A DNA stretch of 61,727 nt, filler included, from Choristocarpus tenellus KU-1152 (GCA_964200185.2; 10 parts of 10 records of this genome joined end to end with filler, not necessarily neighbours in it); one strand, 5' to 3'. Shown: positions 10,544-56,300, counted from the whole stretch's first letter. A program made the numbers and translations. Notes: generated from the sequence alone by a model not told the origin.

Positions 10544-10597
10544 GGGTCAAAGTATCTGGAGGGGGGGGGGGGGGGGGGGGGGGGGTGGGGGGGGGGG
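10544..10597. mobile_element. MITE family B-type end at contig break
   Basis: GGGTCAAAGTATCTGGA followed by poly-G. Confidence 0.7.
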
Positions 10598-10697: not shown

Positions 10698-10714
10698 GGA
10701 TGTCTTCAGTTATT

Positions 10715-19789: not shown

Positions 19790-20048
19790 GAGTGAAAGTA
19801 TCTTAGAAGGTACGAGTTTTTCCCTGTTTGTCCATTTGCGGCTTGGTTTCCCACGGGTTTTCAATGACACTTTACCTACTCCAAAATGTTTGGGAGTAGG
19901 TAAAATGTATACGTTATGAAAAGGTGTCTCCGAAACATAGATATTGACACTTCCTAACAACCATGATAGCCCAAATTACATCAAAATTGCAACATTGGAT
20001 TTTGGTCCCCCAATGGACGCGGCTCTACCCTCTAACATACTTTGACCC
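19790..20048. mobile_element. MITE family A
   Basis: Same sequence; probable TSD CAAT with a 1-nt offset. Confidence 0.9.
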
Positions 20049-20083: not shown

Positions 20084-20123
20084 GGGTCAAAGTATCTTGG
20101 GGGGGGGGGGTGGTTTGTGAGGG
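20084..20123. mobile_element. MITE family B-type end at contig break
   Basis: GGGTCAAAGTATCTT followed by poly-G. Confidence 0.7.
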
Positions 20124-21749: not shown

Positions 21750-24700
21750 CTGTGATCTTCCTGAACATGGTCTATCAGTCCCAACTCCACTAGACGTTGT
21801 CCAATAGCCACAGCCTCTTCCGGGCTCCCTGCAATGTCCACATTACACATCCACACGACTGCCTCAGCCCCCAGAAAGGATTTTTCAAAGGTGCGGGAAA
21901 GCATAACATGATCCTGTGGTGTTTGTTGTAACAGATTCCACATAGTTACACCAGATGAAGGGTTAGGGTTAGGGTTATGTAGGAGGTAGGAAAGGAAGTA
22001 TGCCCGTGACACTTGGGCAACATTGAAGGCCTCCCCCTTCAGTAGTTGTTGATGGGCATATTCTAGGAGCCGTTGAGTCAAGACTGGCGCTTGTTGGCCA
22101 AAATGAAAAATAACGGGCCTCTTGTGATCAGGAGATGTTTACCAAGATTTCCACATGTATCTGGGACTTGCCATTTGCCGTAAGATATAGGCTTATTGGA
22201 TGGAATGTGGAATGAAATTTGAGACTGTGAAAGATGCACTGATGGGATGTTATGAAGTTCCTGGAAGAATTCCCTGCTTTCAGAATCATTCTATACAGGA
22301 TATTCTCTGAAAGGTTACAAAAGCAACTTGAGCAAGAACCTAGCATGCAATATACTACCAAATTGCCGATAAGCACTGCATAGAGCGATACATTTGAGTA
22401 GCCCAGCTCATTCACATTCATGGAACAAAGGATGCAATCATCCAGAGTGCTGACGAACTGGCTCAGCATATCAATGATGACAAAGCCTGTTGACTATTGG
22501 TTGAAGATGTGAGAGAGGGCGGGGGTTGTCTGCTTGTACTGCAGATCTAATATTTGCTGTGGCAAGGAGGATGATCCTAAGAAGTGATGCTTCAAGTTTA
22601 TCTTCATTGTGTGATACTAACCCTCACCTTGACATCTATCTGAGCCTGCATTTGCCCGCATAGAATCTCTGCTGCTTCCATTGTGAGGTCCATAGCACTG
22701 TTGTACTCACAGTCCACGGTGGCTTCGTTGCCACTGAAACGTTGGAATTTATATTCCGTTGCCAAGCTCTCGCTTGCCTGGGTAAGGTTGCAGCAATGGT
22801 GTATTGTGTCACAGAGATGAAGTATAGGTCCAACCTGTGCCCACCTTATCTTTTTGTGTAATAGTGTTGAAAAGTAGTATTTTGTGTTGTTAGTAAAAAA
22901 TAGGCTATATATGAAATTGATAAAGAATGATCTTATGTCCAACCCCTTGCTATCTGTAGCCCGAAAGACCCAAAATATCTGGGGGGGCGGGGGGGCGGTC
23001 TACACNNNNNNNNNNAGCCAGCTCTTATGTGCGCCGGGAGGCGCCAGAGATGGGGGGGGGGGGGGGGGGCGGTCTACACCAGGGTGTCCATTTGGACCAA
23101 AAACGTGAAAACTCCATTTACATTATCCATCCGACATATGCCACCAAATCAGCCAAACATAGCGACATGAAAATATTGACCCCAAATGGACAGCCGCCAC
23201 ACACACCCCAGATACTTTGAGCCAAGTGCAGAGTATCAACCTCATACCTTCTATACATGTAGACAAGACACAAACTGGGCAATGTTGGAGACCATGTATT
23301 ATTCCTCACCCAATCCTGAACTCCCTCAAGAGAGTGCACTGAAAGCATGGACAGGTTAGAGCAATAGGCAATCATCCTTTTTTGGTTCACCAAACTACCT
23401 ACCATCACGATATTCTACTTGACCACATCGGCAGAAACAGAAACTAGCTTTATTGAACCCTGAGTGATTTCAAGGGGGATAAAATTGGTTATGACTCCAC
23501 ATTCAATGGTAACATTTTTGCTTATTTTAGTGTGTTTGTGTTTGCCTATGTGCGTGATCTAGGATCAGTATGACACTTGTTTGTCTGCGCGCGAAGGTGT
23601 GGTGAGGTTTGAAGTACAATTTCTGTGCAATTTCTGTGCAATTTCAAAAATGATGTGAGAATAGAGTAAGGGACTAGTATGATTCTCACCGTGGATTGTG
23701 AGCTTGTGCTCTGGCGCCTGGCTTTGCTACGCCGGTATAACTTTTTCGTGGCTTGACCCTTTGCTGGTTTGTCCAGGGGGACATCAAGGTACTTCAGAAG
23801 ATGCAGCAGCTTGCGATCCTGAGCATTGGAACATTTTTATTTTATTGAGGTTTAGTGCTGAGAAAAAGTACAAATCAAAAAATAGCTTGAATGAAGAAAT
23901 TGCCCTCCTCCTTGTGCTTGCAAAGATCTTAGTCTATGTTTTCTATACTACACACAACTCTGTGTCACAGTTTGTGTTTTGTGTTGTGTCCACAGCTGTT
24001 CAGTGCATGGACTTGAGTGATGCAAAATGACAACATGGATATATGCTCCCCCATGAAGACGAGAAATTACCCCAGATGGTGTATCATAGACATTCTACTT
24101 AGGACAAAAGGGATACAAAGGTGTGTGTATCAATATCAATCAACCAACCTCAGGAGGCATAGTCTCAGTTAGGTGTGCAATGTCAACCATCCCTGCATTA
24201 TTTGGAGGCACAATGTTTACAATGAGCCTTGAAATCATGACAGAGAGCACGAAGTATGGTGTGCTTTGCTCCAGATGTGTCGCCTGTAAAACAAAATTTG
24301 ACACATTACAGAAAATCACCAAGGGTAGTTAGTGCACTAGGATATGGATTGGCGTTGCTGAGCACACAAGGTTGGCAATGTTGGGGTTTTGCGACTAGCC
24401 AATCCACCAGGTGCGCCACCTGAACAAACAAACAAAAAACAATCTTCAAAATACTTTTTTCATGTCGAAATGGTTGAAAAAACCGCCACCTTAACACAAA
24501 TGTGCAAAATAGATGCATTGCAACAATCCCCCACGGCAGTGCTTGAGGAGATGGATTGGTGTTGCCGAACAAAGCAAGGTTTGCAATGGTGGGATTTATA
24601 AAACATGGAGACAAATGTGAACTGCTGTGCGGACAAACCATTCTGATCACTGTCTTAGAACAGAAGATATGTACAAGAGGTCTCTGTAACGAACTGAAGT

Positions 24701-26984: not shown

Positions 26985-27245
26985 GAGTGAAAGCATCTTA
27001 GGGTTAGGGTACGAGTTTTGTCCTCTTTGTCCATTTGGGGCTTGGCCTCCCATGGGTTTCTTGTAACAGTTTCCTACTCCAAAATATTTCAGAGTAGGTG
27101 CAATGTATACGTTACGAAAGGTGTGTCCGGAACAAGGATATTGACACTTCCTAACAAACACGATAGCCAAAATTACATCAAAATTGCAACATTGGATTTT
27201 GATCCACAAATGGACGAGGCTATACCCTCTAAGATACTTTGGCTC
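26985..27245. mobile_element. MITE family A
   Basis: Same sequence and TIRs; TSD not exact; TTAGGGTTAGGG in the TIR. Confidence 0.9.
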
Positions 27246-31968: not shown

Positions 31969-32225
31969 GAGCCAATGTATCTTAAAGGGTAGAGCCGCGT
32001 CCATTTGGGGGCCAAAATCTAATGTTGTGATTTCGATGTAATTTTGGCTACGTGTTTGTTAGGAAGTGTCAATATCCTTGCTCTGGACACACCGTTGCAG
32101 AACGTATAACTTTTACCTACTCCGAAACATTTTGGAGTAGGAAATTGTCATAAAAACCCTGCGGGAAGCTATGCCCCAAATGGACAAACAGGGCAAAACT
32201 CATATCCTCTAAGGTACTTTCGCTC
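31969..32225. mobile_element. MITE family A (opposite orientation)
   Basis: Same sequence and TIRs; TSD not exact. Confidence 0.9.
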
Positions 32226-32939: not shown

Positions 32940-33008
32940 GACCCGAAGTATCTGGGAGGGGGGGGGGGGTCTACACCAGGGTGTCCATTTGAACCAAATC
33001 AGGAAAAG
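32940..33008. mobile_element. MITE family B truncated at contig break
   Basis: GACCCGAAGTATCTGG(G)nTCTACACCAGGGTGTCCATTTG. Confidence 0.85.
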
Positions 33009-33134
33009 NNNNNNNNNNNNNNNNNNNNNNNNNNNNNNNNNNNNNNNNNNNNTTAATTAATTAANNNNNNNNNNNNNNNNNNNNNNNNNNNNNNNNNNNN
33101 NNNNNNNNGTGGGTGGGGGTGCGGGAAAAGGAAA

Positions 33135-33179: not shown

Positions 33180-36100
33180 GCTAGAGTTCGGTCATTCATG
33201 AATGGAGATGATTTGGAGGTGTGCGACCGAAGGTGGTGCAAGAACGGCAACCTTATTGTGGCAAACGTTGAACACTCGACGGATCCAACACTTATCCGCA
33301 AGGCCCATAGTCTTCTACGCGACGTATTTGGGTGCCGCACTAGATAGGTTCGGACTCAGGAAGAAAAAAAACGTGTCTACTGCGTGCCAAGAGCGTGACT
33401 CTGCCGTTCATTCTTGACAAATATGTAACGAAGTGCATTCTATGCCAGATTCACATCGATCTTGTAGCCGAAGTCCGTCGTCACCGTCTTCGCAACGAAA
33501 ACGGTCGCCTCATCGGGTCCCATTGCCTTTCCCTGAGGATTGACGGCCTCAGGAAAACATCACTGCGTCTCAAGTGGGACGAGGGTCTGCACCAAGGCTT
33601 CCGGCAGGCAGGAAGGGCCTAGCACGCGTTCTTGAAGGAGAGACGTGGATACCTGCAATCATTTGCGTACATGGGACAGCCCAACCATGTGGCATTCAAG
33701 TGTTTGCCATGCGATAAGGTTACATCACGTACGTAGGGGTTATTCCGGTGTTGGTTCAATATCTTGAGGTGTACCACAGCACGTTTGATTTTCATGTGGG
33801 GAAGAGCCAAAGTATCTTAGAGGGTACGAGTTTTGCCCTGTTTGTCCATTTGGGGCTTGGCTTCCCTAGGGGTTTTTATGACATTTTCCTACTTCAAAAT
33901 GTTTCGGAGTAGGTAAAAGTTATACGTTCTGAAAAGGTTTGTCCGGAGCAAGGATATTGACACTTCCTAACAAACATGATAGCCAAAATTACATCGAAAT
34001 CGCAGCGCTGGATTTTGACCCCCAAATGGACGCGGCTCTACCCTCTAAGATACTTTGGCTCGGAAGAAAGACATTACGATGTACCAACACTCACACACAA
34101 AGTCTTGGGGTCTCGCGATTTCCGTTTGTGGTGTGGGTCACCGCGTGCACTGTGTTAGCAACGTGTAAACATGGACAAGGACACATCGCTACCACAACTG
34201 CACGCCCGACACCTATCCATAGCGAACGAAGACAAACAATAAGTTGGAAAGAAATGGAAAAAAGCCAGCACACCCTTATTACCTTCCTCTTGCCGTCCTT
34301 GTAGGCTCGGCCGAAGGAGGTCTCCATCTTCTCTTTCATATCGCCCTTTGACGCCGCGTTGGACACGAACACCTCCACCCTCCTGCTCCATTCAAGGGCT
34401 GCCTCCGTCACGTTGTGCCTCTCTGACTGAAGGAGATGACGGTGTCCCCAGGATTCGTGTACCTATCATAGGAGGGCAGGTCCAAAACATTTCCTGAGGA
34501 GTACATTGTATTGCGCACGGATTCATCATATGGCAATGTATGAGTAACGTATTGATTCGGGGCAACACAGTCATGGTGCGGTTTGACACGTAACATACTG
34601 ATTCTGGGAAACACACTCATAGTACGGTTTGACGCCCCTTAACCGTCACCCAGCTTGTTGCGTTACTGTTTAACGATGATCTACACCTATACAAAAAAAG
34701 TCGTTGCTCCCATGAAGAAGGGCGTGTGCGACGTAATTAACGAACCTGTCAACGAGGAAGTGGAGGGCCCTCATGGGGATGTCCGTCGCAGCACCTTGGT
34801 ACTCGACGTCACACATGGTTTGGAGCACCAGAGGAGATGGATCACTCCCGTGGCCAAAAATGTCGTCGACGGTGACTCACTTGTTGCACGTGAACTCTGT
34901 ACCATCGTTGTGCGCGAGAAGAATCATGTCCTGGTGGCATTTGAGATGGTTATCAGTGCCTGCGAGAGGGCGCCCCCCCCCCCTTGTCTTGCACATTATA
35001 AGCAGGGGACGATCTTCCACAATCAAGCCCACCTTCGACACCATAAGAGCCCCTGACTGAAGAGAAGGCAGGAGCGAGCGCGTGGGTCTGGCATGCGTCA
35101 AACTTGACAGTAACAGCACACAAGTATGGTATCGTTAAGCTTCATGAAATTGCATACCACTAACATAATAATAGTACAACGAGGGTGGAACGCAAGTCAA
35201 ATAACAAATGCACAAAATAATAGGAAATTCTTTTATAAAAGGAAAGACAAGTAACATCAGCAAGCGATTTGTGGACAAATCAAACAAAGAACTACGAAGG
35301 ACACGGAGGGGAAGAGCAAAAGACACAAAAGGAAATACAAGGTACGAAGAAGATGAAACAACATGGGGAAAGCGAAAAGAAAAGACACAAGACAGAATCC
35401 GCATCTCTTGAACGGCCGCCACCGTTTCCGATCGACACTCGGGCGGACTGATAACGGCCATGGCGGATTGCAATAGTCTCCCGCAATACACCCCGTATTT
35501 CAGCGCTGGCGAACTCTGCAACTCACCGTGTAGGTGGTGAGGTTGCACAGCCCACGGGTGGGGCACAAATAGCGCGATAGTGCCCTGAGGATGTATCTTC
35601 ACCTGCAAGCACTTCATCACCTGGCGCAAGTGGGTGTTGGTCACCTCTTCGTCGTTGAGGGGTCTTGACTCAGCGGTGATGGACACTATGGCAAGCTTTG
35701 GCGCGTTGTAGAAGGCGAACTCTTTCAGGCCGTCTAAGGGTAGTGTTGGGTCGAGAGGGCGAAGGTCGTGTAGTGCAGCATTCTCAGCCCTGGTTGGACA
35801 TCATGACACATGACACAGTACACAGACAGCACGACGAAAAGTACAGCATCGTAACAACGGTGCAGGCAATTTTATCAATAAGTGAGGATCTGATAATATT
35901 TTTCCGGCATCCCCAAAATGTTAAGCCGTACCCTCCACAACGCCAGACCCATCAGATACATCTTTTGGAAGGAGGGGAGACGACAAACAGGTAAGTTCCA
36001 TGGTCCATGGAAACCTCCAAAAAAACGCCATACCGAACACACAAAGGACGAGCAATACACATGATGTACAACCAGCCAAGACCCACGTGCAAACCAACGC

Positions 36101-39100
36101 GAAACTGAACACGCAGAGACGAACTGTATGTCCTTATAATGTGCAACCACGCTGAGACCCACATGCACTTCTCCATGTCCGCCGTTTCGCTGCGTGAGGG
36201 GGGACACAAAAGGCTTTGCCTGCTGGGTGACCCGCCCGCACTCCTTGCGTTACATTTACCCTTACCCTTGACCCTGCCCCAACCCACTGCTGCGTTCCCC
36301 ATCGGTCCAGTCCCTTCACTGCCCTCCTGTGCCACGGGGCAATTGATACACAATCGATCCTTGTCCCTCTCGTCCCACAATATCCACGTTGGCACATTCG
36401 CCCATGTGCGTGATGGAGCACTTTGGGCAGGAACACCTGCCGCGCATGGCATCGAACGAGAGCGTCAAACAGACAGAAGAGCATTTTTCCAAATCATTAA
36501 TTGGGCGCAACAACGCAACGTGGGGATCCACGGCTACAAAGGACCACGAAATTGGCTGCACAAAACAATACAAACTACAGGTGCGAAACAATAGTCGGTT
36601 GCGACATGCACTAACACACTCGGGCTGTGGCAAACAAAGAGACCTGGGGGTAGCGACCGCAGCGCCACACAGAGAGGGACCCCGCCACATCCACTGGTGT
36701 GGTGGCGTGCATTGCTGAAGCAAGACAACTTAGTTATCCGTTCGGGCGATCGGATGAAAACCAATCTTACACCATTAATTACCCGCCATCCGCGTGTGCA
36801 CAACTACAACTACATTACTCACCGAGCCGTAGGTGGAGGATTACATTCAGTACAGCAAACGCCCGCATTCCACTCTCCATGGCCGTTTTGTTCTTCTTCC
36901 GCACCAGGAACGCTGTCGACAGAACCCCCTTCGCCCGTATCCTCCCTGCCTGGCAGTCTGTCCCCTCCCTCGTCTTCATCCTCTCCTTCGTGTTCGTCCC
37001 CTCGGTATTGTTCGCACCCTCCCTTGTCTTCGTCCTCTCCTTTATGTTCGTCCCCTCCCTTGTCCTCGTCCCCTCCTTTGTGTTCGCACCCTCCCTCATC
37101 GTCTTTCTCCCGTCCATCTGATGCCAATCCGTTGTTGCTCTCGACGTCAGCGCCGCCGCCATTACCGCCCCGCCCGCTGTGGATCTCATGGAGGTTAACC
37201 TGGTTGAGGACATCCTGGTATTTCCCATCCCAGGTGGTGAGGTAAGCGCGTAGCGTCGAGTCCTTCTCGAGAATCTGGTGGTGGACACGGCGGAGAACGT
37301 TGTTGAGGAGAGGAGGGGACAATGGTGACGTCAAAAATGGGAGAGTGTAAAGGAAGTACGATAGCATGTCAATCGAACAGAGCAAACGATACGATTGACG
37401 TGGTAAATACGTCTAATGGAGGCGGCTTGCGGGGCGAAATAGTTTGAAAGAAGTCATTATCAAGGATGCCAGCCTGTCTGTAGTTTACGACAGTGACACG
37501 TGTTGGAGGCGGGAACGAGGTACAGATTGACCAAGATCTTGCCCGGAGTTGAAGGCAACGGTTGGTTATTCCCGCTATTAGCAATGAAGCCGAGATCTGA
37601 CAAAACTGCATCGTTTGTTGTAGGGAAGGCAAGTCTCTCGCTCATGATGATGACGAANNNNNNNNNNNNNNNNNNNNNNNNNNNNNNNNNNNNNNNNNNN
37701 NTTAATTAATTAANNNNNNNNNNNNNNNNNNNNNNNNNNNNNNNNNNNNNNNNNNNNCACTCACGGCTCTGACCCGTTGCAGAGGTTTCATTCCGACCAC
37801 CGTCGAGATGTTTGCCCTCAGCTGCCGGACGGGCCCCGCTTGTTGGTCGCCAGATGAAACCTTCTGCAGAAGTTGGGCCACCTCCCTTTTCCTCTCCTCG
37901 TAGTGGGGCTTGACCCAGAGGTCGTGCATATTGCACTTCTCATATGCGAGCCTGTCCATTTCCCTGGTAGCCCGTGCCACATTCACATAACGTCCAAAAT
38001 TCAGAGCAGTTTTGCAACAATCAATAAGTGCGGTGCCGAAAAAGACGCTGACAGTATATTTTAAAATTGAGGGGCGCATGGCGACGTATGGGTGCACACG
38101 AGATACGGAAAAGGCAAAAAAAGATAACCACTGCAACTGCACCATTTACCAACCTTTGGAGCTGTGGTGTCCACTTCTCCTTGGACACAATCTGCCTGGT
38201 GCGCGAGACAACCATCTCAGACATGTGCGCGTCTGATTCGATGTCCTTGTAGTCCCTCGCCGTAGGAACCTTCCCGTTGAACGACTTGTACCTGAAAAAA
38301 GAGAATGGCCATGAAGGACGTCAACAAGAACAATGTGCAGGTAATGATGAGGAAAGGGTCGCCACTGCAGAAAATATTCACGGATCGATTGTCATAGTTC
38401 AGAAAAGACAAGAGCGCACATACACAGGAAACACACACTGTTCGTAGAATTTCCACAATACTACAAAGGGTTCTTCGTTCGACACAACAATGGCTGACTA
38501 CATTCTTCATCGTAGGAGATACGTATTTAACGTTCCTGTGCAATGTGCTGCGACCTGCACACATTGCGCTTACTGCTGTCTACACGATAAAACACAGTGA
38601 TGGTTTGACCTGCCTAGCAAGCAGATGGATGCATAGCCCCTGCTTGAGAAAAGTGAAGCCAGCAAACTCCTCGCAACTCAGATAGTTCAGTGTGACTGCG
38701 TTGCGGTCGATCTGTGATGATGAGGTCTCACACACTTCCTTCAGTACCTCGAAGGACTCTGGTCGAAGGGACTTTACGCCTTGCTGCCAGTTTCGTGGAG
38801 TTGTTTTTGCCGGGGGAGGAACGTTCACCTTCGCGATGGGCAGAAAACGGAAAATATTATGCACCCAGCCAGTGAGGATGAGGCATCGTTATACCATGCC
38901 AACGAGGTATGTATGAGTGGGGGGGGGGGGTTCAGGCAACACCGTCGATAAAATAAACAAGGACGCTTTTTATTGTTCGTCTGTGGTTAACCACACATAC
39001 ATACTACATGGTCACTCGAAAATCAATAAGTTGGTTGACAGGGTTCCTAAACGCGGGATAACTATCTCGACTTAGGTTGAATAGGAGGACAAAGAGAGAT

Positions 39101-40038
39101 TTCACAACAGCTCTAACCCAACTAGAGGAGGAGTAGAGCGCCACCATCCCACCAATGTTGACAACTCCATCAGCTTTTTGTACATTTTGTGGATCTCTAC
39201 TAGTGACTCTTCTTTTTTCTTCGTCTGTTGCTTGATAGCTTCTTCGAGCTCGTGCTGAAAAAATATCTTATCGTACAGCGTGCGCTCAACCGCACTCTCG
39301 GTCGCGTCGTTCAATGCTATAAGCGTGGTCCCACAGTGTAGTGGGCGAATGGGACAAGGGGTAGGTGGGAAGCGGTCGCGGGACACACGCGGCATGCAGT
39401 ACTGAGCCATATGTTGCTGTGGACAGAAAGACCACGAGGGATAAAAAATATCAACAACGAAAAGATCCTCAATGGGCTAACTGACAATGAACCAAACAAA
39501 GGAAACTCGGCAACAACTTCGTACATCAGAAGAGTCATCAGGCGATCATGGAACAACGAAAAAACTCAACTTACTTTGTTGCTTAGTTGATCAGAACGAT
39601 CAGGCGATTATGGAACAACGACAACACTCCATCACCCACCGTTGGCAATTAGCCTTCCTTCTGCTTGGTTGAACTCCATGTAGACCCGCATCACGAAAGC
39701 GTGTTCGGGATCAAACTCTCTATTCATCACCGTTACTCTATGGTTTCCGTCCAGTGTACGTCCTTGAATAAGCAGTCTCGCTGGACTACGACAGACGGAG
39801 CAAACTGCTCCAGCCAGCCTTTCTCGTGGATAAACTTGCTGACGCGCGCAAGGCCACGCTCGCTCAGTGGATGCACCATCTCCGTGCGTGTGATGTTGCC
39901 GAGTTTCATCCGGTACGTGCCGAGGTAGTGGTGTTCTAGGAGTGAGGACATGCCCTTTAGATTGCTGTCCCACGTTCTCGATCCGTGGGCAGCGCCATCG
40001 GCGGTCGGGTGGGTTGTTGTTGAGCGAATGCTGGACAT
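33180..40038 (-). pseudogene. Decayed multi-exon gene: ParB-like domain + helical/HTH-like region + acidic linker + PHD-like finger + beta-class N6A/N4C DNA MTase-like fold (spans linker 37658-37757)
   Basis: ParB motifs V(H)PLSERGLARVSKFIHEKGW..FAPSV and LDGNHRV, then LIAN|ALNDATESAVERTLYDK. Cys/His cluster CSCPKCSITHMGEC...RLCINC. MTase-like LRQVMKCLQVKIHPQGTIALFV, HQDMILLAHN and IPMRALHFLVDR|YTNPGDTVISF...EAALEWSRR. Contains in-frame stops and frameshifts; the 3' limit is approximate. Confidence 0.65.
33804..34061. mobile_element. MITE family A, in an intron of the ParB/MTase-like pseudogene
   Basis: Perfect TIR GAGCCAAAGTATCTTAGAGGGTA; TSD GGAA. Confidence 0.95.
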
Positions 40039-40289
40039 GGCGAAGGTTGGGAGGGTGTGACGGGGATCGATAAATAACAGGTGCACGTGGTATGTACGGA
40101 AGGGAATGAATTGAAATGAGGACTGAGGGACGGCAGGTGCTGCTTTATTTCATCTGGTTGGTCGGTCCTCAAAACTCAGATTTGTCTTTCCGTTGACAAT
40201 TGTGTTATAAAAAATATGAATATCGAACAGCATACGATTTCATATTGGAAAGAGACAGAGAGTAACAGATTTTTGTGACCTTTTCGTTT

Positions 40290-41340
40290 CGTACGTTTCA
40301 AACGTATTGTATCAATGAAGGATGTGGTTTGTATTTGTATTTGTTGATGTAAAGATTAGAATATTATTATTATTTCGTAAAACCCCTAACGCACGTGTCT
40401 TGGGTCTTCAAGGGTTTAGAAGATCAGATCGGATCTTTAAAACTCTATATCCTCTTTTTTGTCGTCTCTAGTATTATTAAGAATCCTAATGTCGCCAAAA
40501 AGCGGTTTTAGTATTTAAATAAATTGTGGGTACCAGTTGGAAGTGACCTTTTAGTTTCTGAAAATTGGAAACGTGTGAGATCCATAAGGTGCGTTTCTTG
40601 TATTTTCAAAAATTGTAAGAACGATTATTACTGGATTTACTATTTCTAAAAATCCTAATGCACGTGTTTTGGGTGTTCAAGGGTTTAGCAGATCCGGATC
40701 CGCTAAACCCAAAGAACCGCGTTTTGTCGCCTCTAGTATTTTCAAGAATGCAAATGTCCAACAATTTAAGATTTTATACTTAAAAAAATTAGAGGGTGCC
40801 AGTTTTTTTTTTACCTTTTGGTTTCTGAACATTGGAAACGTACAAGATCAATGAAGTATGTGCTTCACATTTAAAAAAAAATTAAGTACGGGTATAATCG
40901 GATTTACAACTTCCAAAAACCGTACTGCACGGATTTTCAGGATCATGGATCTCAGGGTTAGCCCACGGATTGCCCGGAGTTCAAAGAAAGTTGGTTTCGG
41001 AACATTGGAAACGTACAATATCAATTAAGTATGTGATTTCTATTTTAAAAAAATTGTAAGTACGGGTATAATCGGATTTACAAGTTCCAAAAACCGTAAT
41101 ACACGGATTTTCAGGATCATGGATCTCAGGGTGGTCCCACAGATAGCCTGGAGCTTAAACAAAGTTGGTTACGGAACATTGGAAAGATACAATATCAATT
41201 AAGTATGTGATTTGTACTTTAAAAAATTTGTAAGTACGGATATAATCGGATTTACAACTTCCGAAAACCGTAATGCACGGATTTTCAGGATCATGGATCT
41301 CAAGGTGGTCCCGCAGATAGCCCGGAGCTCAAACAAAGTT
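40290..41340. repeat. AT-rich tandem array: three ~173-bp units (starting 40827, 41000, 41174) preceded by two diverged ~270-bp units
   Basis: GAACATTGGAAA(C)G.TACAA.ATCAAT.AAGTATGTG and TATAATCGGATTTACAA.TTCC.AAAACCGTA.T.CACGGATTTTCAGGATCATGGATCTCA recur at 173/174-bp spacing. Related motifs occur at about 40560 and 40290. Confidence 0.9.
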
Positions 41341-41414
41341 CATACGCCCGCCTTCGAATCTAATCACTCCTAGACCTTCTCACTGCCCAAGACCGCCTGT
41401 TGCCCGAAAACACC

Positions 41415-43914
41415 ATGACAGTTGCTTCCACAGCAAGGGGGTGGCTTTTGTCGCCTGCGTCTCCCCCTGTGTTGCCCCCTCACCAGCCCACGAACAATGA
41501 AGCGCTGGAGCTTTCTACCAATGACGCTTCAGCGACCGGCGCCAAGCTTCGCCGAGGATGGGCTGAACCCATCCTGGTCAACGAATAGGGTGACTGCTGC
41601 AAGCGCTTAGCCTGTGTGAAGAAGTTCGCGGCAGATAGCGAGTCCTTCCTTGCACGCACGTTGGCCAAAGAGCAGGACATCATCCGGGCGTGTGAGAACC
41701 GCCGCGATCGTAAGCACTTCGTTGGTGACCGTGTACCTGTGACTAAGTTGGGTCCTGGAGGTGGATCTATGCTCGCGGCCGGCATTCCCGTCTATGCGCA
41801 GTTTCTCAAGGCATCGTTCGGAATATCCAATCATGTCATCGACGCTTGCAAAGGCACACCTAACGCAAGAGCATCCACCGGCGTGGAGAGGTGGGTTTGA
41901 TATATGTACACAGTGTTATTTTTCCCCGGTATATTTTCCCCCCTGCTTGATGATTGAACAGTAGTCCTATTTCAGAACAATGTAATCCGACCGTACTCAC
42001 CACATTCACTTTGCAGTTACCACGCCTAAATGTCTGATATTCAAAGTTAAAGATCCCTCCAGCATGAAGTTATGTGTTACCTATGTGTGTATATACACGT
42101 GCGATATGTTTTTTTATGCTTCAACAATATCATCTCATCCGACCGTCCCCGCGCTGCTGCAGCAGTTACCACGTGTAAATATTTTCGGAATTAGAGATCC
42201 GCTGCTGACATACGATCCCTCTAGGATTCCATCCTCCGTCCCTTGTATCCACCTCCAACACATCTCCCATCCATTTATATACATACGTGCGCTACTACAA
42301 CAGGAACAGCACGAACAAAGATAGGGACATGGCTCCGAAGATAGACTACTGGGCTGATACATATGGGTAGTTCACGCCTCACAAGTCCACAATTGTGATC
42401 TACGGTGCGAACAAAGAGGTAGGTTTTGCTCTTGGTTTTGGAGAGGTTGGCCGCACCCTGTGTTGGGAGTTAGTTGCAAACCGTGTGACCCAGCAGTACG
42501 TAGAAGAGGTGGATCGAAGTAGCATTTCGAGTGGTGGATGTTTATTACTTCAACCGGTATGATGTTATGGTTAAAAGAACATGTGAAGATTCGTACCAAG
42601 GGCTATTTTTTTCGTTTGCTATTTCGAGACTACAATGTTGATGATGATACTCTTCGTCGCATTTACGACGGAAGACACACTAACTGTTATCCGTGTACAC
42701 CTACTCTGCGGCCCCAGGCCCGGTCTGACATTGGTAGCAAAAGTGTGTACTTCGTATGTCTAAAGCGCTTCACGATGAAGATGATGATGATGATGATGAT
42801 GATAGATTCGCCTCCTTTGCCGCTTCTGCAAACGGTGGCAAGGCCCGAACAGAATGACGCTCCTGGCAGATTTACGAAGATCATTGTATTTGCTCTTTCG
42901 TAACGCACGATGTAAGCTTGCTTGACCCTGTCTTCCGCGTTCTCAGTCAAGTTATTGGTCAGCCTGCCTTCAAGAGATTTTGCAGGGGTGTTCTTCGAGT
43001 GTTCCTTCTCAATAACTCCTCGCTTGCCCACACAACCAACATTTTAAACTAGGAGCTATACAAGGATTTTTGCAAAGAGGTAATACGGGTGTATCCTGAC
43101 GACCCTTCCAAGCAGGTAAGCAGGGCGCACTTCCTCCGATTGCTCAGAGAGGACAGGCCCAACATCAGGGTGAGGGTAGGAGGCGAGTTTATGAAATGTG
43201 ACATATGTGTCACGTTAAAAGAGAAGCGGCATGGTTCGCCTGGTGTAAAACCCACGAACGACTCCACCGTCCTTGACTCCATTGATAAGGGGCTATCAGA
43301 CCATCGAGAGGTAGGTGTTCAGCGTTAATTTTGCAACAAGCGTACAGTGGCAACATGTCGCCGTCATTGCCCTCCATTGGGAAGAACATCTGTTGCCTTT
43401 TGCGAATGAAGGCTCCCACGCAGGTGCTTATGGCAGCAGCAGCAGCCTCACTCACCGCAAAAATGTTGTTATTACCTGCCCAAACATCTTGTATGATAGA
43501 CTGCTTCCTGGTCGTCTACAACGGGATGTAGGAGGGACAGGTCATGTAGCGGCCTTCCGGCCCCGTACGTACGTACTTCCTACCATCCCGATAATACTGT
43601 GTTTGTAATGAACGCAGCAATAAAAAACATATCCAAAGACAATCATTTATTGTTACCTGCACTCCATTTTTGTTACTAACCTGGGACGTGTTAACAAGTG
43701 GCTGGTTTATTTGATTTACAGACGTGATGTTGCTCTCCCCCATTCGCCAGATTATCCAAGCGGATTGGCTGGTCATCGCCAACAGCACCAGCAGCGCCAT
43801 GCGGGCCAAAGCCGACGGCAAACCTCTCGGCTTTGTGTTCATGTCCGTAGACGTCGCGAACCAGACAGCACAGGCCCTCCCAGCACTTTACCCACCTACC
43901 CACGGCGGTGACAG
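41415..43914 (+). pseudogene. Sola1-type DDD transposase relic with introns (exon-like 41415-41890, 43053-43310, 43751-43914); 3'-truncated by contig end
   Basis: N-terminal CCKRLAC and GIPV(Y)AQFLKASFGIS. Middle ELYKDFC...VSRAHFLRLLREDRPNIRVRVGGEFMKCDICVTL...DHRE. First catalytic Asp region FMSVDVANQTAQALP, compared with DG[AM]DQ...LP. In-frame TAG at 41586-41588. Confidence 0.7.
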
Positions 43915-44091
43915 GTAATCACACGCACGCATAGTTCATCTGACAACAAGTTTGCAGCCGCACGCGGAACAGAATAGACGACCATGTTTTATTCTACGGA
44001 TGATTGCAAAGTCCCAAGAAATAACCGCTAAAACAGACGCACATAATTCCACTACCTATTCCGTTCATCATGATGACGACACACCGTAGAA

Positions 44092-44150
44092 GAGCCAAAG
44101 TATCTTAGAGGGTAGGGCCGCGTCCATTTGGTGGCCAAAATCCAATGTCG
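44092..44150. mobile_element. MITE family A, truncated at contig end
   Basis: GAGCCAAAGTATCTTAGAGGGTAGGGCCGCGTCCATTTG. Confidence 0.88.
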
Positions 44151-44500
44151 NNNNNNNNNNNNNNNNNNNNNNNNNNNNNNNNNNNNNNNNNNNNTTAATT
44201 AATTAANNNNNNNNNNNNNNNNNNNNNNNNNNNNNNNNNNNNNNNNNNNNAAACACTACAATGCCCTCCAAAACATCTATTCAAAACATAGCTCTCCTGT
44301 AATAAAAAATAAATCAACATGGCTGACACCACCCCCCCCCCCCCCAACTTTTCCTGCACTGCTGACCATATCCCACTATCATGTCTACATTTCTTGTTCA
44401 CACCCATTTTTTGAGTACTTCCCTCCTCCTCATCCCCCCCCTCCCGCCTACCTACACACTACAAAATTGGAAAGTACCGGTCATCCTCAGAGTGGTTTAC

Positions 44501-47500
44501 CTTGTTAAGCACCAGTACCATCTTCTTGTCTGGCCTGGCAAGTACTGCTGCCTCCACAGCCTCCGCCCTACTCCCCAAGGGATCTCTGGCATCCAAAACC
44601 TCCAGGATAACGTCCGCTGTCTCAACCACCTTTGCAGAGTACAACGGAGTGGACATGGAGCAAAAAAAAAGAAAGTAGAGGGTAACAGTAAGCATGCCTA
44701 CTGGTGTGGAAAGGGGTGATCAACATAGAAATAGGCATTAGAGCAAGCAGACAATGAGAAGTTTTTTAGTCCTAGTGGTCTGAGACAAAAGTCCTTCAAC
44801 TCCCTTTCATCTTTGACTCCTCAAGAACATGAAAACTATCACCTCACCTTCTTGAGTTCCCTCAAGTAGGCTCTCCTGGATTGCTTCCCATGCCTCACCA
44901 CATCATCCACATTCCGGAATTCATCCTTGGGACAAAGAAAACACACACATACAAACACACACAGACATACGCCTCATATCATACCATGTCATATCATGTC
45001 ATATCAAATGGGGGAAACTATTAGGCTGACTGGCACACACCCGGTTGAAACTTATAAAAACCAAGACGACAAAATAGGGTATAACCAAACAAAACGTACC
45101 CAAACCATACCTGAGATGTGCAGGATAGACCGCACACCAGAAAATAATAATAAGAAAACAGTGTGTGCCCTAGCACCAGTCCTACCTACTACGGAGAGAT
45201 GTCAAAGGGGATCTTCTGACTCAGCAGAACGAATTTGAAAGCAATCAAATGAGGAACACTGATCCGTTTCTGCAAAACTAAAACCACATCTTGATGAGCA
45301 AGGTAAATACTGTTGGGCAACTATCCAAGAGAACCACATACCACTCGAAGTCCCCAATTCCAAACACCTATCAAAACACACAGCCCTCATTGAATCCTCC
45401 CTTCAACTCTCAGGCATAGGTGAGGTGCTCTAGAGGTCAGCAGTGTGACGCTCACTTACTCTCACTTACGCTCCCATTAAGGTACACCTTTTTGCTGTCT
45501 GGCACTCTCACACCTACAACAGGAATCGCCCCTCACAAGCATAAAGGAGAGGTTTTCCTACACCAAATAGAGATTCAATCCCATGTTTGTGTGTCAAAAC
45601 TGACACACAAACCTGACGAAACATTAAACCCCAACAGAAGCACCGCTCACATATCAAAGACCACATCCCTTAACACCTCTCCCAGCATTACCCCCCTCCC
45701 TTTCCCCCACCTATCCTTCACACAACGCACTTTTGTTCTTCCCTCTTCTGCCCTTGCAAAATCCTCCTGTGCACTCTCTGCCCCAGACACCAACCCCTCC
45801 AGTGTTTGACCCCCGGGGGCCAAACCGCGCCTCTTCATCTTTATTCCGTTCACAAGAATGAGAGGCAAAAAGGTGCAGGTAGAGAGGAGAAACAGAGACC
45901 GTGCATAAAAGGAATTGAGAGTAGAATGGGGGAGGTTTGGGATCAGAGACTACTGAGAACGACTCGTATTGTTCTGTTAGTTCTGTTTAAAAAAAAAAAA
46001 CCTGCAACATGAAAGTACGAAGAGGAAGATCAAACACACTCAACGAAACCAATTTCGTATACTTTAGATCACACCACATGGGAGTACAATCAATAGTACA
46101 TAGCGGATGAAGACATCTGACATTGACATTCTTGACATTGCTGTTGCCTACTTCGTCAAGAAAAGTGAGGCCATTTAGAAATAGTCTTATCGAGCACACC
46201 GTGCTGTCGTTCTGCTTACTCTCGTCTATATTCTAAGACCGACTTGTGGCACATCAACAGATGGGGTCAACGCCTTCTTATGGAATCCACAACCACAGAT
46301 CACATGAAAACACCATACACAAATAGGAAACAACCGGCCTATCATAGAGGAGGAATATTGACACCATTTGGTCTAAGCCAAGCAAGCACATAAGCGTTTG
46401 TTACATCCACAGCCTGCGCTGTCAAGGGTTGGACTCCCCTGCCTGCCTGCAAGTGAGAAGCAAACCTATTGCCATCAAAAGAACAGGAGTAGCAAACCTC
46501 CTCTGACAAAGGCATTCAACAAGGGGACCAGCATGAAATCATTGAAGGGACAGAAAAATGCACTGTTGACCACATTGCGAGAATCTTGGTTTGAGGGCGT
46601 CTGACACTACGAGATTTTAAAACGTTAAGTGATCACCCGTTGCAACATTGACAGTTACCCTCACAAACACAACCACAGCATCGTGCCATATGGTATCACC
46701 AACCAATATTGGAGGAGCATCCTCAAACTCAAAGAGGGACAACAAGAGAACACAACTATATGTTTTGAGAAAACCGCAAGTCTTTATCTTGTAGCAAAGT
46801 GGTGCAAGACCCTCTTCTGTGAATGCATTTCAAACACATGATTCAACAACAGATATTTATTAAGAAAATACTCTCAAGGACCATTCTTAACACTAAAATA
46901 TCCACTACTCTGTTGGTGTTGTGTCTTTATCTCCCAACACCACTTAAATCTCTCACCAGTTCCGCTCTCCTCTTCTCCTTCATTGCCACCTTGTTGGCCT
47001 CTAGGCGCCGCTTGGCATGCTCGATCTCTGCCAATACCTATTTGGGTAGCGTTATTGAGTTGATAATTGAGCAAATTCCGCTGATCAGGGTGATTGGATG
47101 GGTATCACAGAAGGGCTGTTTTACTGCCTTCTGGTTCTTGAATATGACACACCGCACAATAGCAACATCATTCTCCTCTACTGTGACTATCTCGTCAAGA
47201 TTATACTGACAGCTTGCATAGAAGCATTTGGCGTATGAAAATTTCAACAATATGCAAACTAAAGTTGAAACGCATTGTTAGCCAGAGATAAAAAATGCAA
47301 GCAATTCTAAAAGCCAAGGCAGGATCCGTGAAGACAATTCGACAAAATGAAATGTGCATTCATAGCTTTGAGTTTGGGCTGGTGTTGGCGTTGCTGTGGA
47401 AACGTTCGAAGACGGCTCAAATGAGATTACATGAGCTCCACTGCAGGGTGGCCAGGTGCTCCCCTGGTCTACACTGAAGAACCTCTCGGATAGAACAACA

Positions 47501-50879: not shown

Positions 50880-51211
50880 CTTTATCAGTCCTTATCGTGC
50901 TTGTGCTTCCCGTGGTCTGTTGTTCTTNNNNNNNNNNNNNNNNNNNNNNNNNNNNNNNNNNNNNNNNNNNNTTAATTAATTAANNNNNNNNNNNNNNNNN
51001 NNNNNNNNNNNNNNNNNNNNNNNNNNNATGGATATGTTTATTAGCGGAGTGAGCACTATCCTTAAGGTGGGGGGGTGGTGCTCTCCCTTGTTATCTAATT
51101 CATTCGTCATCAAACACGTCAGAGATATGTTTAAGCATGTTTGTGACAGTTACTTAGACTACTAGTCTATATTGCACACTCTCAACTGTATCAGATATAA
51201 CTAGTAGTGTA

Positions 51212-53380
51212 GAGGGGGCGTACCTATATAAGAGAGGGTAGGGGCAAGCGAAAAACCCCTCTTATACCCGATCCTCTCTTATTGTATATAAGAGTGATTT
51301 TCTCTTAAACCGAGGGATTATGATAAGAGAAACCTATGTTATATTGAGCAACAGTGCTCGTAGGCACTTTATACTTGTCCCCGATCGATGACAGAACGAC
51401 GCCCTAGCTGTATGTGCTTCTCCTGTGCCTTCAAGAGTAGTTACATGTAGATATGTATTGAACATTACCCTCGGTGAGTCCATTTCAATGAAGCTGTGGT
51501 GGTGCAGCAAGCACCACATCTACACCACCCCTTGACAGTATACCAGCTTCGTATGTATATGCAGTAGTGTAACTTTGGTAAATTACACTCATTGCAATGT
51601 ATTCATCCATATGTATGGTACACCTTCCCAAGAAAAGCATCTGCAAGCTGTTGGATGGCTGGATAAACGACTCACAGTTCAAATCAAATCAAAGTTTAAA
51701 GCCAATCTTCCTCTAATGCCCTGCCCTACGTATTCAATTGCACACTACAAGCATAATATACAGTACGGTATCAAAAACGCCACCATATATCAAATACACC
51801 TGCACCGCCAAGCACCCCATCGTACGCACTGAGTAAAATAACTTATTCACTAATAAAAAAATTACGACCGCCAATAAAATCGTGAATGCCTCTAGTTTGA
51901 TTGCCCTTGCCTCAATTGGGCTGAGCCAAGCCAGCTTTGCTTTCCAGAGATAGTATGAAACATCGTTCATGCTCCACTCTTCTGTGGTGGTTTCTAAGCT
52001 TGCAAACTCGTCAGCTACTTGAGAGTATACGGCGGTGGAGGAATCGAGAACACTGAAGAGGCTACTCCTTTCTCTTCACAGCCCCCAATGAGCTGCCCCC
52101 TCTTATAAACCCATCGTCATCCTCGTCACCCAAGCTCTCATTGTCTGACTGCTACAAGGATTCCTCGAGCAGCTGGTCTTTCATGTTCTCTAGTACTGCA
52201 TTGGCCACTTCATCCTTGTCTTCCACACCAATCCACGTTCTCTCTGTGTCGATGGAAGCCTGAGACGGTTTTCGGTCGGGCTTGAGGTCCAGAGCGTCAA
52301 GAGCATTGGAGATATCCTCACTAATATATAGGGACACCTTGTGGGACGTACCTCTACTCGCAAAATGACCACCCGTGATATTACTACTGTACACAGTACA
52401 GACATTACAGTACGACAGAAATGTGCGCAAAAACAAAACAAAACAAGCATGATCCTTATCTGCAGACAGTGCAGAAAGATAATTCAATCACAACCACAAT
52501 CACAATCAACCTGCTTTCAGACTTTCAATCCACGCGCTGATGCATCTCGACGTATTTGACACACCCCTCGTAGACTTGGCATCAGGCATCAGCGTCTGCG
52601 CTTTCTCCATACTGGTTGTTGTCTCCTTCAACTTGTAGAGGGTGCTGTGACCAATTCCAAACCTTTGAGCAACTACAGTTTCCGTCATGGTCTTCAGGAG
52701 GGTCGACGCTTCCACCTTCTCTGCAAAGCTTAAGCATTTTCGATTTTCGGCACCGCGAGGCTTGTAGGACGCAACTTTCTCTGTAGATTTATTTGGCAGC
52801 ACCTTCCCCTTGCCCTTGTTCTTGCTATCGTGGCGCTTTGACACCATGTTGTCACCAGGTGGAGGACCCAAAGCCCTGCGCTTGGTGGGGCTCACGCACA
52901 ATTTACACACGTGTTTCATTTCGCTGGCGCCAAAAAGAACCCACGACGCCGCAAATGCCATGAAGATAGCCACTACAAATGCAACACTTATGGCATGTAT
53001 AGTTTGACGGACCAGGAGTACTACACTGTATGTTGCAGCTGGATCCCGGTGCGCAGGGCATCGTTATATCTGTACAATTCAGTCGTCTAAACTTGATATG
53101 TGCAGTACTGAAAGGCAAAAGATTGGTATGCTGTGTTCTGGTCGTTTGAGGAGGTTTGTACCTTTGTTATATTTTGCTTAACTTTAGACATGAGTTTTTG
53201 GGAAACTCGTTGGTCAAGTGGTGAAAAAAAAATGAGAGTTTGCTCGTATAAGAGAGAATTGGCAGGAAAAAGTCAAAACCTCTCTTATATATAGCTTGAA
53301 AAGTGGTGACAAGAAAATTTTCCCTCTTTTATATCCCGTTTTCTCTTATATCGACCTCTCTTAAATAGATACACCCAGTC
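51212..53380 (-). mobile_element. Internally deleted pogo/Tigger (Tc1/mariner superfamily) element
   Basis: TA on both sides. Imperfect TIR GAGGGGGCGTACCTATATAAGAGAGG versus GACTGGGTGTATCTATTTAAGAGAGG (reverse complement), with subterminal CTCTTATA repeats. CENP-B/psq-type HTH RKCLSFAEKVE...VAQRFGIGHSTLYKLK. No DDE core visible. Confidence 0.8.
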
Positions 53381-56300
53381 TACATGTAGATTCAGTAAGC
53401 AAGAGAGGTATTAGTTGGTAATCCCTGATTTCCTCTTGTATATTAATAGATGATACGAATGGGGTATATTGACTTTGGCGCTTTAAGGCAGTCCCTCTAT
53501 TTAAGATAATCACTCCTCTACAACATTTGGCATTTCCCTTACGTCACTCCTACCAATACACGTAAGTTTCTCCCCGTTCCATGTCTTCTGATATAGAAGG
53601 GACACCAGTCCATGGTCGGGGCCAAAGCAATGTCCCACCTGCTGAAAATGGTCGTGAACAACTTTGTTATGGAGGGTTTACTTAACGCGATAATGGAATT
53701 AGAGCAAGAACGGGATCGTCGTTTTATGAGGGATGTTAGTATTAGAGTCGGCGGCGGTGACCATCCCGCTGTCCTGACCGCTGTGTCCAGCACGCGGCCT
53801 CTGACTGGTTGTGTACTAGCCGAAGTCGGGTCCAAATCATCCCTACGGGGTGCAGGGTTCCGAAATAAGGCAGTCGATCATTCCTGCCATGCAGATATGA
53901 ATCTTTCCATCTCGGACGGCACAATCCAATGCACCGTGGCCGTAAGAGGAGGCTCGTGGATCGGGGAGATGGACCGCGAGAGAGGAGAAATATTGGGGTG
54001 GTGCCCTTGACACTTGGAAGTGATCCACGGACAACAACCGTTGTTCCTAACGAACTGATCTCTGTACAAGATGAAGACAAGCGAGGCAATGCAACCGAAC
54101 CTGCAGCTGTGACCAAGCCTGCACCAGATGGACCTGGAGCAGTCACCACACTTTGTTGAAATCTGGGATTGAATTAATCGTGATCTTGTACGGTGGCAGG
54201 TTGGTTGTGATGAAGGGGTGTCATAGTGCAATGAAGTAATGGTGAATTCATGGCGATGAACCTAGTGATATGATGTGCATAGTCAGAGGTTATTACAACA
54301 GGATCCCCTATCAGAGACGAGATCAGGACCAATAGAAGATGTTTAAGTTCGTAGATAGTGCTGCTGGTACACTATAGACACCATCGGTGGAGTAGATTAG
54401 GAAATGCAGACACCACTGGNNNNNNNNNNNNNNNNNNNNNNNNNNNNNNNNNNNNNNNNNNNNTTAATTAATTAANNNNNNNNNNNNNNNNNNNNNNNNN
54501 NNNNNNNNNNNNNNNNNNNGTGGTGCGGGTGGGTGGCGGGAGGGTGGTGGGGGGGGGGGGGGGGCGGGGGGTGGGGGGGGGGGGGTGGGGGGGGGGGAGG
54601 CATTCTATTCACTGCTGTGGTACATACAATAACTAATCTTGGACCTCATTTCTTTGCAACAGCAATATTATTTCAAAACTCAAAACACAACTAGTGCTGT
54701 CATCTGATCCTAAAGACATAAACGCTTATCATATCGTGTCGTGTACTAGTTGTGTTTTGAGTTTTTTGAGGTCTCCGACTCTCAGTCAGTCATTGAAAAA
54801 AAAGTTTTAAAGTTAGTAGTAGTGATCAACAAGGAATCATCTTGTAGGGTTTTGACAGGTGTTGATGTTAATGCTATTTTATTGTATATTGTGACACAAT
54901 GTCACAGTTGAGTACTTCAATTCAACTCTCCATCCCCATCCCCACATGTAGTTCCACATGGACAACAGTAGACTTGTTTGACACTAAGTATGACACTAAA
55001 TATAAAGTTAGGGTGATCAGTGAGATGCAGCCCTGAAATGTCCTACTCGCCTGCAGCTATCTACATACCCACCTACTGCCCAATTATTGACTAGGAAACC
55101 AACAATCACTACTAATTCCTCATACTCTCATTTTTCTCATTGAAGGAGTTCCTAAAGTTGAGCATTACATTTACTTTAAAGGTACATAGTAGTTGACTGA
55201 CTTGTTTTGGGGAATATATGTATGTATATATAATCTGTGCTAACCTGAGTAGAGTGGAACAGTGGATGCATTAGTAGGTGGGCTGACATGCCCCAGGGTG
55301 AACTTGGACGCCATGACATGGGGGGTTAAGTCTGCAGTCAAAAGAGTAATGTCCATCTCAAACTATAGTTCATATTCCAGACAAAAATATGGTGTCTTTG
55401 AGCAAGCGATACAATATCATTGTTGTGTGGAACACACTCTTCCTCCTACAAAAAGTTCTCACTCCAATATATTTAGTGCATAAAGGGTGTTTGCCAACCA
55501 TTAAAGATATCTTCTTAAGAGTCTCCTTGTGAAATTCTCTCCTAGAAAAAAAAAATTGAATATCAAAATGATATTTTGCAGCGTTAACTTGGGAGTCACC
55601 TGATTGTGGATATTCATTATTGATCAGATCATCCTTTGTACATAATACAATTGAAACAGTGTGGTGTTATCTCTATCATGGTATCAGCCGTAGCACTAAT
55701 CGCTGTAAAGGATTTTATCTTTCTTCTTCGAACTAACACAAATGTACTGGGAAAAAAAAGAACAAAGGAATATCTTACCCTTCCTCTGTCAGGATTTGGC
55801 TTCAACAGTCTCTGAAGGCAGGCTATAAATACTACACAAGATCGTACCAGACTTTTCACATCTTTTGTGGTCTTCCAAAATCTCATCAAAATCCCACTTG
55901 CTCTACCTATTCTACAGTATATCCACTGAGGAGCCCCAAGACACGCCTTCCCAATGCAGTCTTGCTTTGTTCCGTAAACTATTTGACTGATGCTGAGCAG
56001 AGGAAGCATCATTTAGTATTTACTGCCATGTCCATGGCTATTCTATTAATAGCATCCTACCACTCTAGACTGTAAGTCATCTAATAAGTCATTATGTATG
56101 ATGTACAGTGTTGGGAGGAGAGATACACAAAGCTTTCAGTTCATCGTCAGAACAACAAACCTCACTACTGTGACTACAAACCAGGGGCCTACTGAACGAT
56201 CTAAATTAATGATTGGGTCAGTCACCTTAGAGCAACTGATCATCTCTACACCTCAGTGCACTCAAACATTATCATCATCATCATCATCATCAAGGGTCAG

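Follow-up and report, generated by a model that had tools for sequence, protein, structure and literature searches.

The stretch analyzed here (61,727 nucleotides including filler, below called the window) comes from the brown alga Choristocarpus tenellus KU-1152 (GCA_964200185.2) and is a gapped eukaryotic scaffold of 10 pieces. It contains the visible part of what is very likely a decayed giant Sola-type DNA transposon with two divergent genes, one for a transposase and one for an accessory protein whose methyltransferase domain is probably inactive. The visible element, delimited by its CpG content and its coverage by diverged copies, occupies at least 10.9 kb (33181-44091, no strand assigned), and both of its ends are lost at N gaps or at a miniature inverted-repeat transposable element (MITE). 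Assembly gaps in and around it lie at 33009-33108, 37658-37757, and 44151-44250, and a self-comparison did not find an inverted pair at the edges of the block, which fall at gaps. The observed/expected CpG ratio is 0.91 for 33181-37657 and 0.95 for 37758-44091, against 0.36 to 0.69 in the other 8 of the 10 pieces. The original prediction, made from the DNA sequence before this analysis, had described the element as richer in both CpG and GC; this is borne out for CpG, whereas its GC content exceeds that of the other pieces just slightly (0.51 and 0.47 versus 0.39 to 0.47).

The decayed transposase gene lies on the plus strand at 41415-43914, as proposed originally, and has four exons and two in-frame stops (41586 and 42368). 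Exon 1 (41415-41890), with a putative ATG at 41415 and the first stop, is suggested by the sequence and a GT donor, and no homologue covers it. Exon 2 (42304-42418), which has AG/GT borders and contains the second stop, weakly matches (E 2.3) the start of P0001, which comes from Ectocarpus sp. CCAP 1310/34 and contains a DUF7869 domain (E 6e-32). Exon 3 (43053-43310) carries a CxxC motif and is 70% identical to P0001 (E 4e-34), and exon 4 (43751-43914) is 74% identical and encodes the first putative catalytic aspartate. The gene breaks off just past this residue, with the MITE following from 44092 and the N gap from 44151, and nothing in the window credibly matches P0001 residues 157-786. DUF7869 is, we presume, the Sola1 transposase; assignment to the Sola-type transposases with a three-aspartate (DDD) core draws on this 70 to 74% identity, with the first aspartate alone present in the window. 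Neither of two viral contigs searched with P0001 was confirmed.

The accessory gene starts at 40038 on the minus strand, diverges from the transposase gene, and is spliced and decayed. Start, strand, and decay were predicted correctly; we count 11 exons rather than roughly 14, and homology ends at 33455 rather than near 33180. Its approximately 952 codons are interrupted by three frameshifts and two in-frame stops, and one donor site, that of intron 2, is not GT. Exon 1 (39640-40038), collinear with the homologues P0060 and P0085, encodes the ParB/Srx-like motifs GWLEQ and LDGNHR and is frameshifted near 39769, where other copies have extra letters. Exons 2 to 5 (37758-39416: 39416-39174, 38828-38614, 38291-38150, and ∼37965 to the gap) correspond to a region that is modeled, with low confidence, as helical in a homologue. 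Exons 6 and 7 (36163-37277: ∼37277-36823 and 36436-36163) encode an acidic tract of 18-bp repeats and then a Cys/His finger, with a frameshift near 36374; other copies have 1-nt insertions at 36374/36376.

The predicted beta-class amino-methyltransferase fold, in which motifs IV, I, and II are degenerate, is encoded by exons 8 to 10 (34283-35789: 35789-35527, 35052-34746, and 34462-34283). These exons contain a stop at 34877-34879 and a frameshift near 34428 and are 69 to 79% identical to P0102, the closest uninterrupted homologue (512 amino acids). Exon 11 (33455-33652), interrupted by a stop at 33560-33562, is 79% identical to P0102 residues 192-258 and begins the conserved C-terminal region, of which the last 254 residues of P0102 (259-512) have no match in the window. 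Three protein-looking segments (36630-36725, 35924-36022, and 33182-33352) are intronic by alignment to homologues, the first two also by spliced joints. From the N-terminus on, the order of the accessory gene is collinear with Ectocarpus homologues, including across the gap at 37658-37757, and this collinearity supports the scaffold order.

As predicted, the two genes face away from each other across a tandem array of about 1 kb. This AT-rich array (∼40219-41340, 64% AT) is their shared upstream region and has three units of 174 bp along with older, degenerate ones. It also includes a 30-bp palindrome (40681-40710) whose score was reached by none of 200 dinucleotide shuffles. It lies internally, between the two start codons, and not in a subterminal position. 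Occurrences of AACCG in the spacer were considered as element termini and ruled out, as they belong to array units. Contigs from other copies link spacer positions 40475-40479 and 41409 to the start of the MITE, which suggests that other copies of the element bear MITE insertions in the array.

We compared the window with contigs from four coded runs of a single study, including runs X1, X2, and X3. Diverged copies, mostly at 90 to 99% identity, covered all 30 bins, in both halves of the element, in all four runs, and X1 alone contributed 17,007 records on 6.4 kb, 7,352 of them at 90 to 95% identity. Because both halves are fully covered, the spacer and the two genes are parts of a family with many copies. 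Among the matches listed, records tile 39859-40910 and link the start of the accessory gene to the array, and no loose ends occur within 40200-41400 (24 of 1,458 listed). A terminus is recognizable by this approach, as the MITE end (44092), which serves as a positive control, collected unlike loose ends from 639 X1 records. In metagenome scans for linked copies, none of 533 candidate stretches was confirmed in one scan and none of 326 in another.

These patterns favor, without proving, a single element rather than two. Alternatively, a fragment of a Sola-type transposase gene may adjoin by chance an unrelated nonautonomous element or host gene family. The element ends are unseen, no record among the matches listed bridges 40910-41436 (32 of 32,433 listed), and the two genes differ in their similarity to Ectocarpus, all of which would suit chance neighbors. 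Against this explanation stand the continuous CpG-rich block, the lack of terminus-type loose ends in the spacer among the matches listed, and the same pairing published for Sola1-1_Ec32 of Ectocarpus, and we consider it very unlikely. The shared CpG-rich block, the bin coverage, the absence of listed spacer loose ends, and the Sola1-1_Ec32 pairing support, with high confidence, one Sola-type element with a transposase and an accessory gene, as in the original prediction. The contrast in identity to Ectocarpus (70 to 74% for the transposase exons at 43053-43914 against P0001 and just ∼25 to 40% for the accessory gene) is possibly a trace of horizontal transfer or of cargo exchange.

Some copies also appear to be expressed. 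Among the matches listed, X3 contigs join across the transposase intron (43311-43750, GT..AG) and five accessory introns, including 38829-39173 and ∼38292-38613, and a joint from 36421 to 36854 supports the junction within the finger; none of the listed X1 or X2 matches has such joints. The simplest reading of the X3 joints is that they are spliced transcripts from other copies.

We identified 72 homologues of the accessory protein; of 20 examined, 10 carried names, all 10 from brown algae. The hosts include C. tenellus, Discosporangium mesarthrocarpum, Ectocarpus sp. CCAP 1310/34, Pylaiella, and Scytosiphon, and the closest homologues are C. tenellus proteins (69 to 79% identity). Many annotated members are fragments. 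Ectocarpus sp. CCAP 1310/34 has two subfamilies, one (P0079) with the Cys/His finger and the other (P0085) with a lysine/glycine-rich linker in its place. Direct profile searches were largely negative: Pfam matched no ParB, PHD, PF01555, or SET domain in any of 23 single-exon pieces, the 72 homologues, or 9 further proteins and no N6_N4_Mtase or DUF7869 domain in the pieces or the 72 homologues, and a PHROGs search of 11 proteins gave weak, unnamed matches only. When the methylase exon was used in a word-based search for homologues, none of 209 candidates held up, and PDB sequence searches with alignment A2 and with P0085 returned nothing meaningful.

The methyltransferase fold became apparent from structure and from profile-profile comparison. 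An AlphaFold model of P0079, built on 73 family sequences, had a core with a predicted local distance difference test (pLDDT) score of ∼90 (142 residues at ≥90). Beta-class enzymes ranked first in a Foldseek search of the PDB with this model (M1.HpyAVI at E 3e-9, CcrM, PvuII, RsrI, MboIIA, and the bdelloid N4CMT), the best structural matches having 9 to 16% sequence identity. Matches to viral models included methylases of phages and giant viruses, one of them annotated as ParB/Sulfiredoxin. In hhalign, a profile of five family sequences including the window's exons aligned with 11 bacterial and phage beta-class enzymes over 215 columns (95.9%, E 5.9e-9; reversed control, 0.1%). The fold and the motif order IV...I-II thus match beta-class enzymes, and the modeled domain is confirmed as a beta-class amino-methyltransferase fold. 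The original expectation that profile and structure searches would recover all the proposed domains held for this fold, whereas Pfam recovered none of ParB, PHD, N6_N4_Mtase, and DUF7869.

The same comparison indicates that the domain has lost its active site. We searched 84 family proteins and placed the motifs by hhalign alignment on 83 aligned rows, which include duplicates and near-identical paralogues and are hence not independent. Motif IV, [DNS]PP[YFW], was found in 0 of 32 rows, and its aromatic residue likewise in 0 of 32; the window reads SITA. In motif I (FxGxG), glutamate replaces the first glycine in 18 of 18 rows, a shifted GxGT being kept in one of them (P0022), and the acidic glutamate of motif II is lost in all 20 rows (19 valine, 1 alanine). 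Among the 11 control enzymes, by comparison, motif IV was recognized in 10 (6 PPY and 4 LPY), motif I in 9, and motif II in 9; one locus had none and one was incomplete. The rows with motif loss come from Choristocarpus, Discosporangium, and two subfamilies of Ectocarpus, and P0102, which is uninterrupted, is likewise dead in motifs I and II. Motif loss is therefore not due to decay of the copy in the window.

Loss of all three motifs predicts that a beta-class enzyme neither binds S-adenosylmethionine (SAM) nor catalyzes methyl transfer. The window gene and its family share fold and motif order with M1.HpyAVI, CcrM, PvuII, RsrI, phage ParB-methylase fusions, and the bdelloid N4CMT but lack the catalytic DPPY-type, FxGxG, and motif II residues of these enzymes. 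With slightly less confidence than for the two-gene element itself, we conclude from these alignments that the accessory methyltransferase is probably an inactive pseudo-enzyme. It might instead be catalytically active and mark its own element by N4-cytosine or N6-adenine methylation, an idea also found in PMC12477816. The beta-class fold would suit an active enzyme, as would the D, N, or S at the first position of motif IV in 29 of 32 rows and the SP and GxGT retained by P0022, and the bdelloid N4CMT is reportedly a eukaryotic N4-methyltransferase precedent. The absence of PP[YFW] and of the aromatic residue (0/32), the Gly-to-Glu change in the SAM loop (18/18), the loss of motif II (20/20), and the lack of a PF01555 match on any family member scanned make an active enzyme highly improbable. 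With catalytic and SAM-binding motifs gone across the family, the self-methylation idea is undercut, and the self-marking by methylation suggested in the original prediction is not upheld.

A dead enzyme could also be a passenger without function, having decayed after its capture as a methylase while the element carried it along. The loss of all catalytic motifs and the many fragmentary members would be expected of a passenger. The same noncatalytic residues and the fold are, however, conserved across Discosporangiales and Ectocarpales, one member of 512 amino acids is uninterrupted, and the joints are spliced; we rate a passenger the least probable of the explanations considered.

The flanking domains are known by resemblance. 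The GWLEQ and LDGNHR motifs of exon 1 align with the ParB consensus (hhalign 2.1%, E 0.023, versus 0.1% in three controls). This alignment suggests an N-terminus that resembles ParB at the motif level, and not a membership in that family; a KorB match on P0060 (E 0.038) is below the cut-off. Across the junction of exons 6 and 7, eight cysteine and histidine ligands in C4HC3 order (CxxC-x9-CxxC-x3-H-x3-C...CxxC) form a putative finger, and seven of the eight recur at the same spacing in P0079/P0042, an N-terminally short pair from one Ectocarpus subfamily; the P0079 model has a pLDDT of 47 to 59 there. The PHD consensus has C-x4-H-x2-C spacing and a tryptophan before the last CxxC. The finger has C-x3-H-x3-C and no tryptophan, P0079 gives no Pfam match, and by its ligand pattern the finger may be termed PHD-like at most. 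Of the cargo originally described as a ParB-methyltransferase module joined to a PHD-like reader, the beta-class fold and the Cys/His finger are thus retained, ParB and PHD being motif resemblances only. A SET-like C-terminus, suggested by eye, was unsupported (hhalign 0.1 to 0.2% against just six bacterial SET sequences).

The closest system, described in 2025, is Sola1-1_Ec32 of Ectocarpus, a 21.5-kb element with 282-bp terminal inverted repeats (TIRs; AACCG..CGGTT) and a 4-bp target-site duplication (TSD), whose opposite-strand gene encodes a 1,104-amino-acid protein with ParB and N4/N6 methyltransferase domains; self-modification was suggested, and N4-methylcytosine or N6-methyladenine (4mC/6mA) was predicted (PMC12477816). 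Our element is likewise a large, multicopy, brown-algal and probably Sola-type element of >10 kb with an opposite-strand gene that has a methyltransferase-fold domain. The original prediction knew of no description of the combination for Sola elements, and its claim of novelty fails in view of this publication; the element type and the gene pairing are already known, and what the present analysis adds, modestly, is the pseudo-enzyme result. The window family differs from the published description of Sola1-1_Ec32 in its dead motifs and its Cys/His finger. The term PHD has no occurrence in the main text of PMC12477816 or of 10.1101/2025.02.11.637652, and our literature search, which left subscription journals mostly outside, found no paper that calls the accessory methylase inactive or notes the finger. 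Nested insertions and pseudogenized transposases are common in giant brown-algal elements (PMC12477816).

Other systems share parts of this arrangement. In the red alga Bostrychia, Plavaka elements carry PAG2 (a PF01555-type methylase with SET) and PAG3 (ParB with a 2-oxoglutarate [2OG] oxygenase) as separate genes, and the ParB-bearing PAG3 adjoins tandem arrays of inverted repeats (10.1101/2025.02.11.637652). These, too, are giant algal DNA transposons with a methylase and a ParB-like protein near repeat arrays; unlike the window element, they ride an EnSpm/Plavaka transposase, and the window gene has no SET support. METTL14 and the methyltransferase of the DIRS1 retrotransposon have inactive methyltransferase domains (PMC4738411) and, like the accessory protein, keep the amino-methyltransferase fold without an active site, DIRS1 also being transposon borne. 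They belong to other clades and elements, and neither is described there as combining an unpermuted beta-class domain with a ParB-like N-terminus on a DNA transposon. In Arabidopsis, the VANC proteins encoded by VANDAL elements bind tandem repeats of the element family they come from and counteract silencing (PMC5735166). VANDAL elements are Mutator-like and activity has been shown for VANC; the analogy is functional only and implies no homology.

We consider the locus best explained, with a probability of roughly 0.55 for the whole reading, as a decayed, end-truncated giant Sola-type element whose accessory protein, with its predicted dead methyltransferase domain, is a nonmethylating regulator that binds the repeat array of its own element. 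Intact copies would transpose by a cut-and-paste mechanism using the DDD transposase, and the shared array would drive both genes. The ParB-like N-terminus is predicted to bind the palindromes of the array, and the dead methyltransferase domain to act as a DNA-binding or scaffolding module, a use for which METTL14 provides an example. The Cys/His finger would contact chromatin and keep the family expressed. Self-binding is backed by analogy, PAG3 lying beside inverted-repeat arrays and VANC acting on its own repeats; whether such regulation is the protein's main role is a prediction on which we are evenly divided. A more specific version is doubtful though possible: a phage-type ParB-methylase that became a noncatalytic reader and was kept since before Discosporangiales split from other brown algae, binding promoter palindromes while the PHD-like finger and the dead fold shield the family from silencing in a VANC-like manner.

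The same dead enzyme could alternatively be a transposition cofactor that loads the transposase onto the element or steers insertion to particular chromatin through the finger, much as the Myb/SANT partner of Harbinger elements sets a precedent. An N-terminus of the DNA-binding type and a finger of the chromatin type would suit such a role, as would the apparent coexpression with the transposase (the X3 joints) and the retention of the accessory gene in lineages with and without DNMT1. The array is internal rather than subterminal, however, the P0085 subfamily lacks the finger, and, to our knowledge, one gene suffices for transposition in most Sola elements; we rate a cofactor unlikely, though the likeliest of the alternatives.

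The high CpG content does not bear on protection from silencing. Of 2,468 rows of differences between the window and other copies, 80 were listed, and 70 were kept (≥80% of the X1 depth differs) and 10, with less support, dropped. Among the 70 listed rows that were kept, 30 changes were of the C-to-T type, and 13 of the 30 lay at CpG versus 23% expected (p 0.01), an excess of ∼2.6-fold. The excess of CpG transitions in the window copy rules out high CpG as evidence of anti-silencing, and the high CpG more likely reflects youth than protection. Among brown algae, DNMT1 has been found in Discosporangiales (D. mesarthrocarpum) (10.1101/2024.02.19.579948, PMC12459048), and the CpG-poor host DNA fits its presence there. 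The accessory family is kept in Ectocarpales without DNMT1, so that its role cannot be to counter 5-methylcytosine (5mC) alone.

Several observations weigh against a self-binding regulator on a single Sola-type element. The element is flanked by the gaps at 33009-33108 and 44151-44250, and within the window we see neither its ends nor a TIR, a TSD, or a complete DDD core. The Sola1 label draws on DUF7869 and on Sola-type motifs, and a literature search for DUF7869 found no papers. With no listed record bridging the spacer, linkage of the two genes in other copies was not seen directly, and X3, the single run with spliced joints, is not on record as RNA. The census rows are not independent, and remnants of motifs IV and I persist, as listed above for an active enzyme. 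ParB drew 2% from hhalign and no Pfam match, and the P0085 structure model was discarded at a pLDDT of 38. The finger has an atypical histidine spacing and no profile match and is absent from P0085. Finally, the window copy gained CpG transitions and hence was not protected, and the family persists in Ectocarpales without DNMT1.

A 258-bp MITE lies within intron 10 of the accessory gene (33804-34061, no strand assigned), with a 23-bp TIR beginning GAG, a 4-bp TSD (GGAA), and pile-ups of loose ends at 33809 and 34061; it is a later insertion and not an element end. The copy downstream of the transposase gene (44092-44150, no strand assigned; 94% match) runs into the N gap and was ruled out as a TIR of the element, being one of nine copies of an independent repeat with a depth far above that of the element. 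The family has eight near-full copies and one cut by the gap in the window (82 to 94% identity), the others lying at 2487-2734, 16392-16647, 18685-18939, 19177-19426, 19795-20044, 26990-27245, and 31969-32225, and its summed depth in X1 is ∼1.5 million versus 2,000 to 65,000 for the element. GAG termini are presumably a Sola2 feature, and with a short TIR, GAG termini, and a 4-bp TSD we take the MITE to be Sola2-like.

Elsewhere in the window lie exons of spliced host genes for phosducin (6407-7552, minus strand), an axonemal dynein light chain (7694-8329, plus), a protein kinase (13689-14093, plus; weak), a DEP domain (21698-22138, minus), and a 2OG-Fe(II) oxygenase (60317-60604, minus). An exon at 44459-44719 (minus) has no Pfam match and by eye resembles a GNL3-type GTPase. 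The piece at 51028-54419 has a raised CpG ratio (0.69) and includes an open reading frame (52506-53063, minus) with a weak CENP-B N-terminal helix-turn-helix match (E 0.005, below the cut-off); it is possibly a pogo/mariner-type remnant. Another family of short repeats (10544-10744, 20084-20113, 22967-23080, and 32940-33008), whose termini resemble those of the MITE and lead into long runs of G, lies beside several gaps and may cause assembly breaks, including the one at the left edge of the element.

If the active site is gone family-wide, the published idea of self-methylation is hard to hold, and the pseudo-enzyme result moves the focus from detection of 4mC and 6mA to the binding of DNA and chromatin. 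The family occurs both in brown algae that have DNMT1 and in others that do not, and it offers a discrete site as a candidate for binding, which would make self-regulation by a transposon testable under two silencing regimes.

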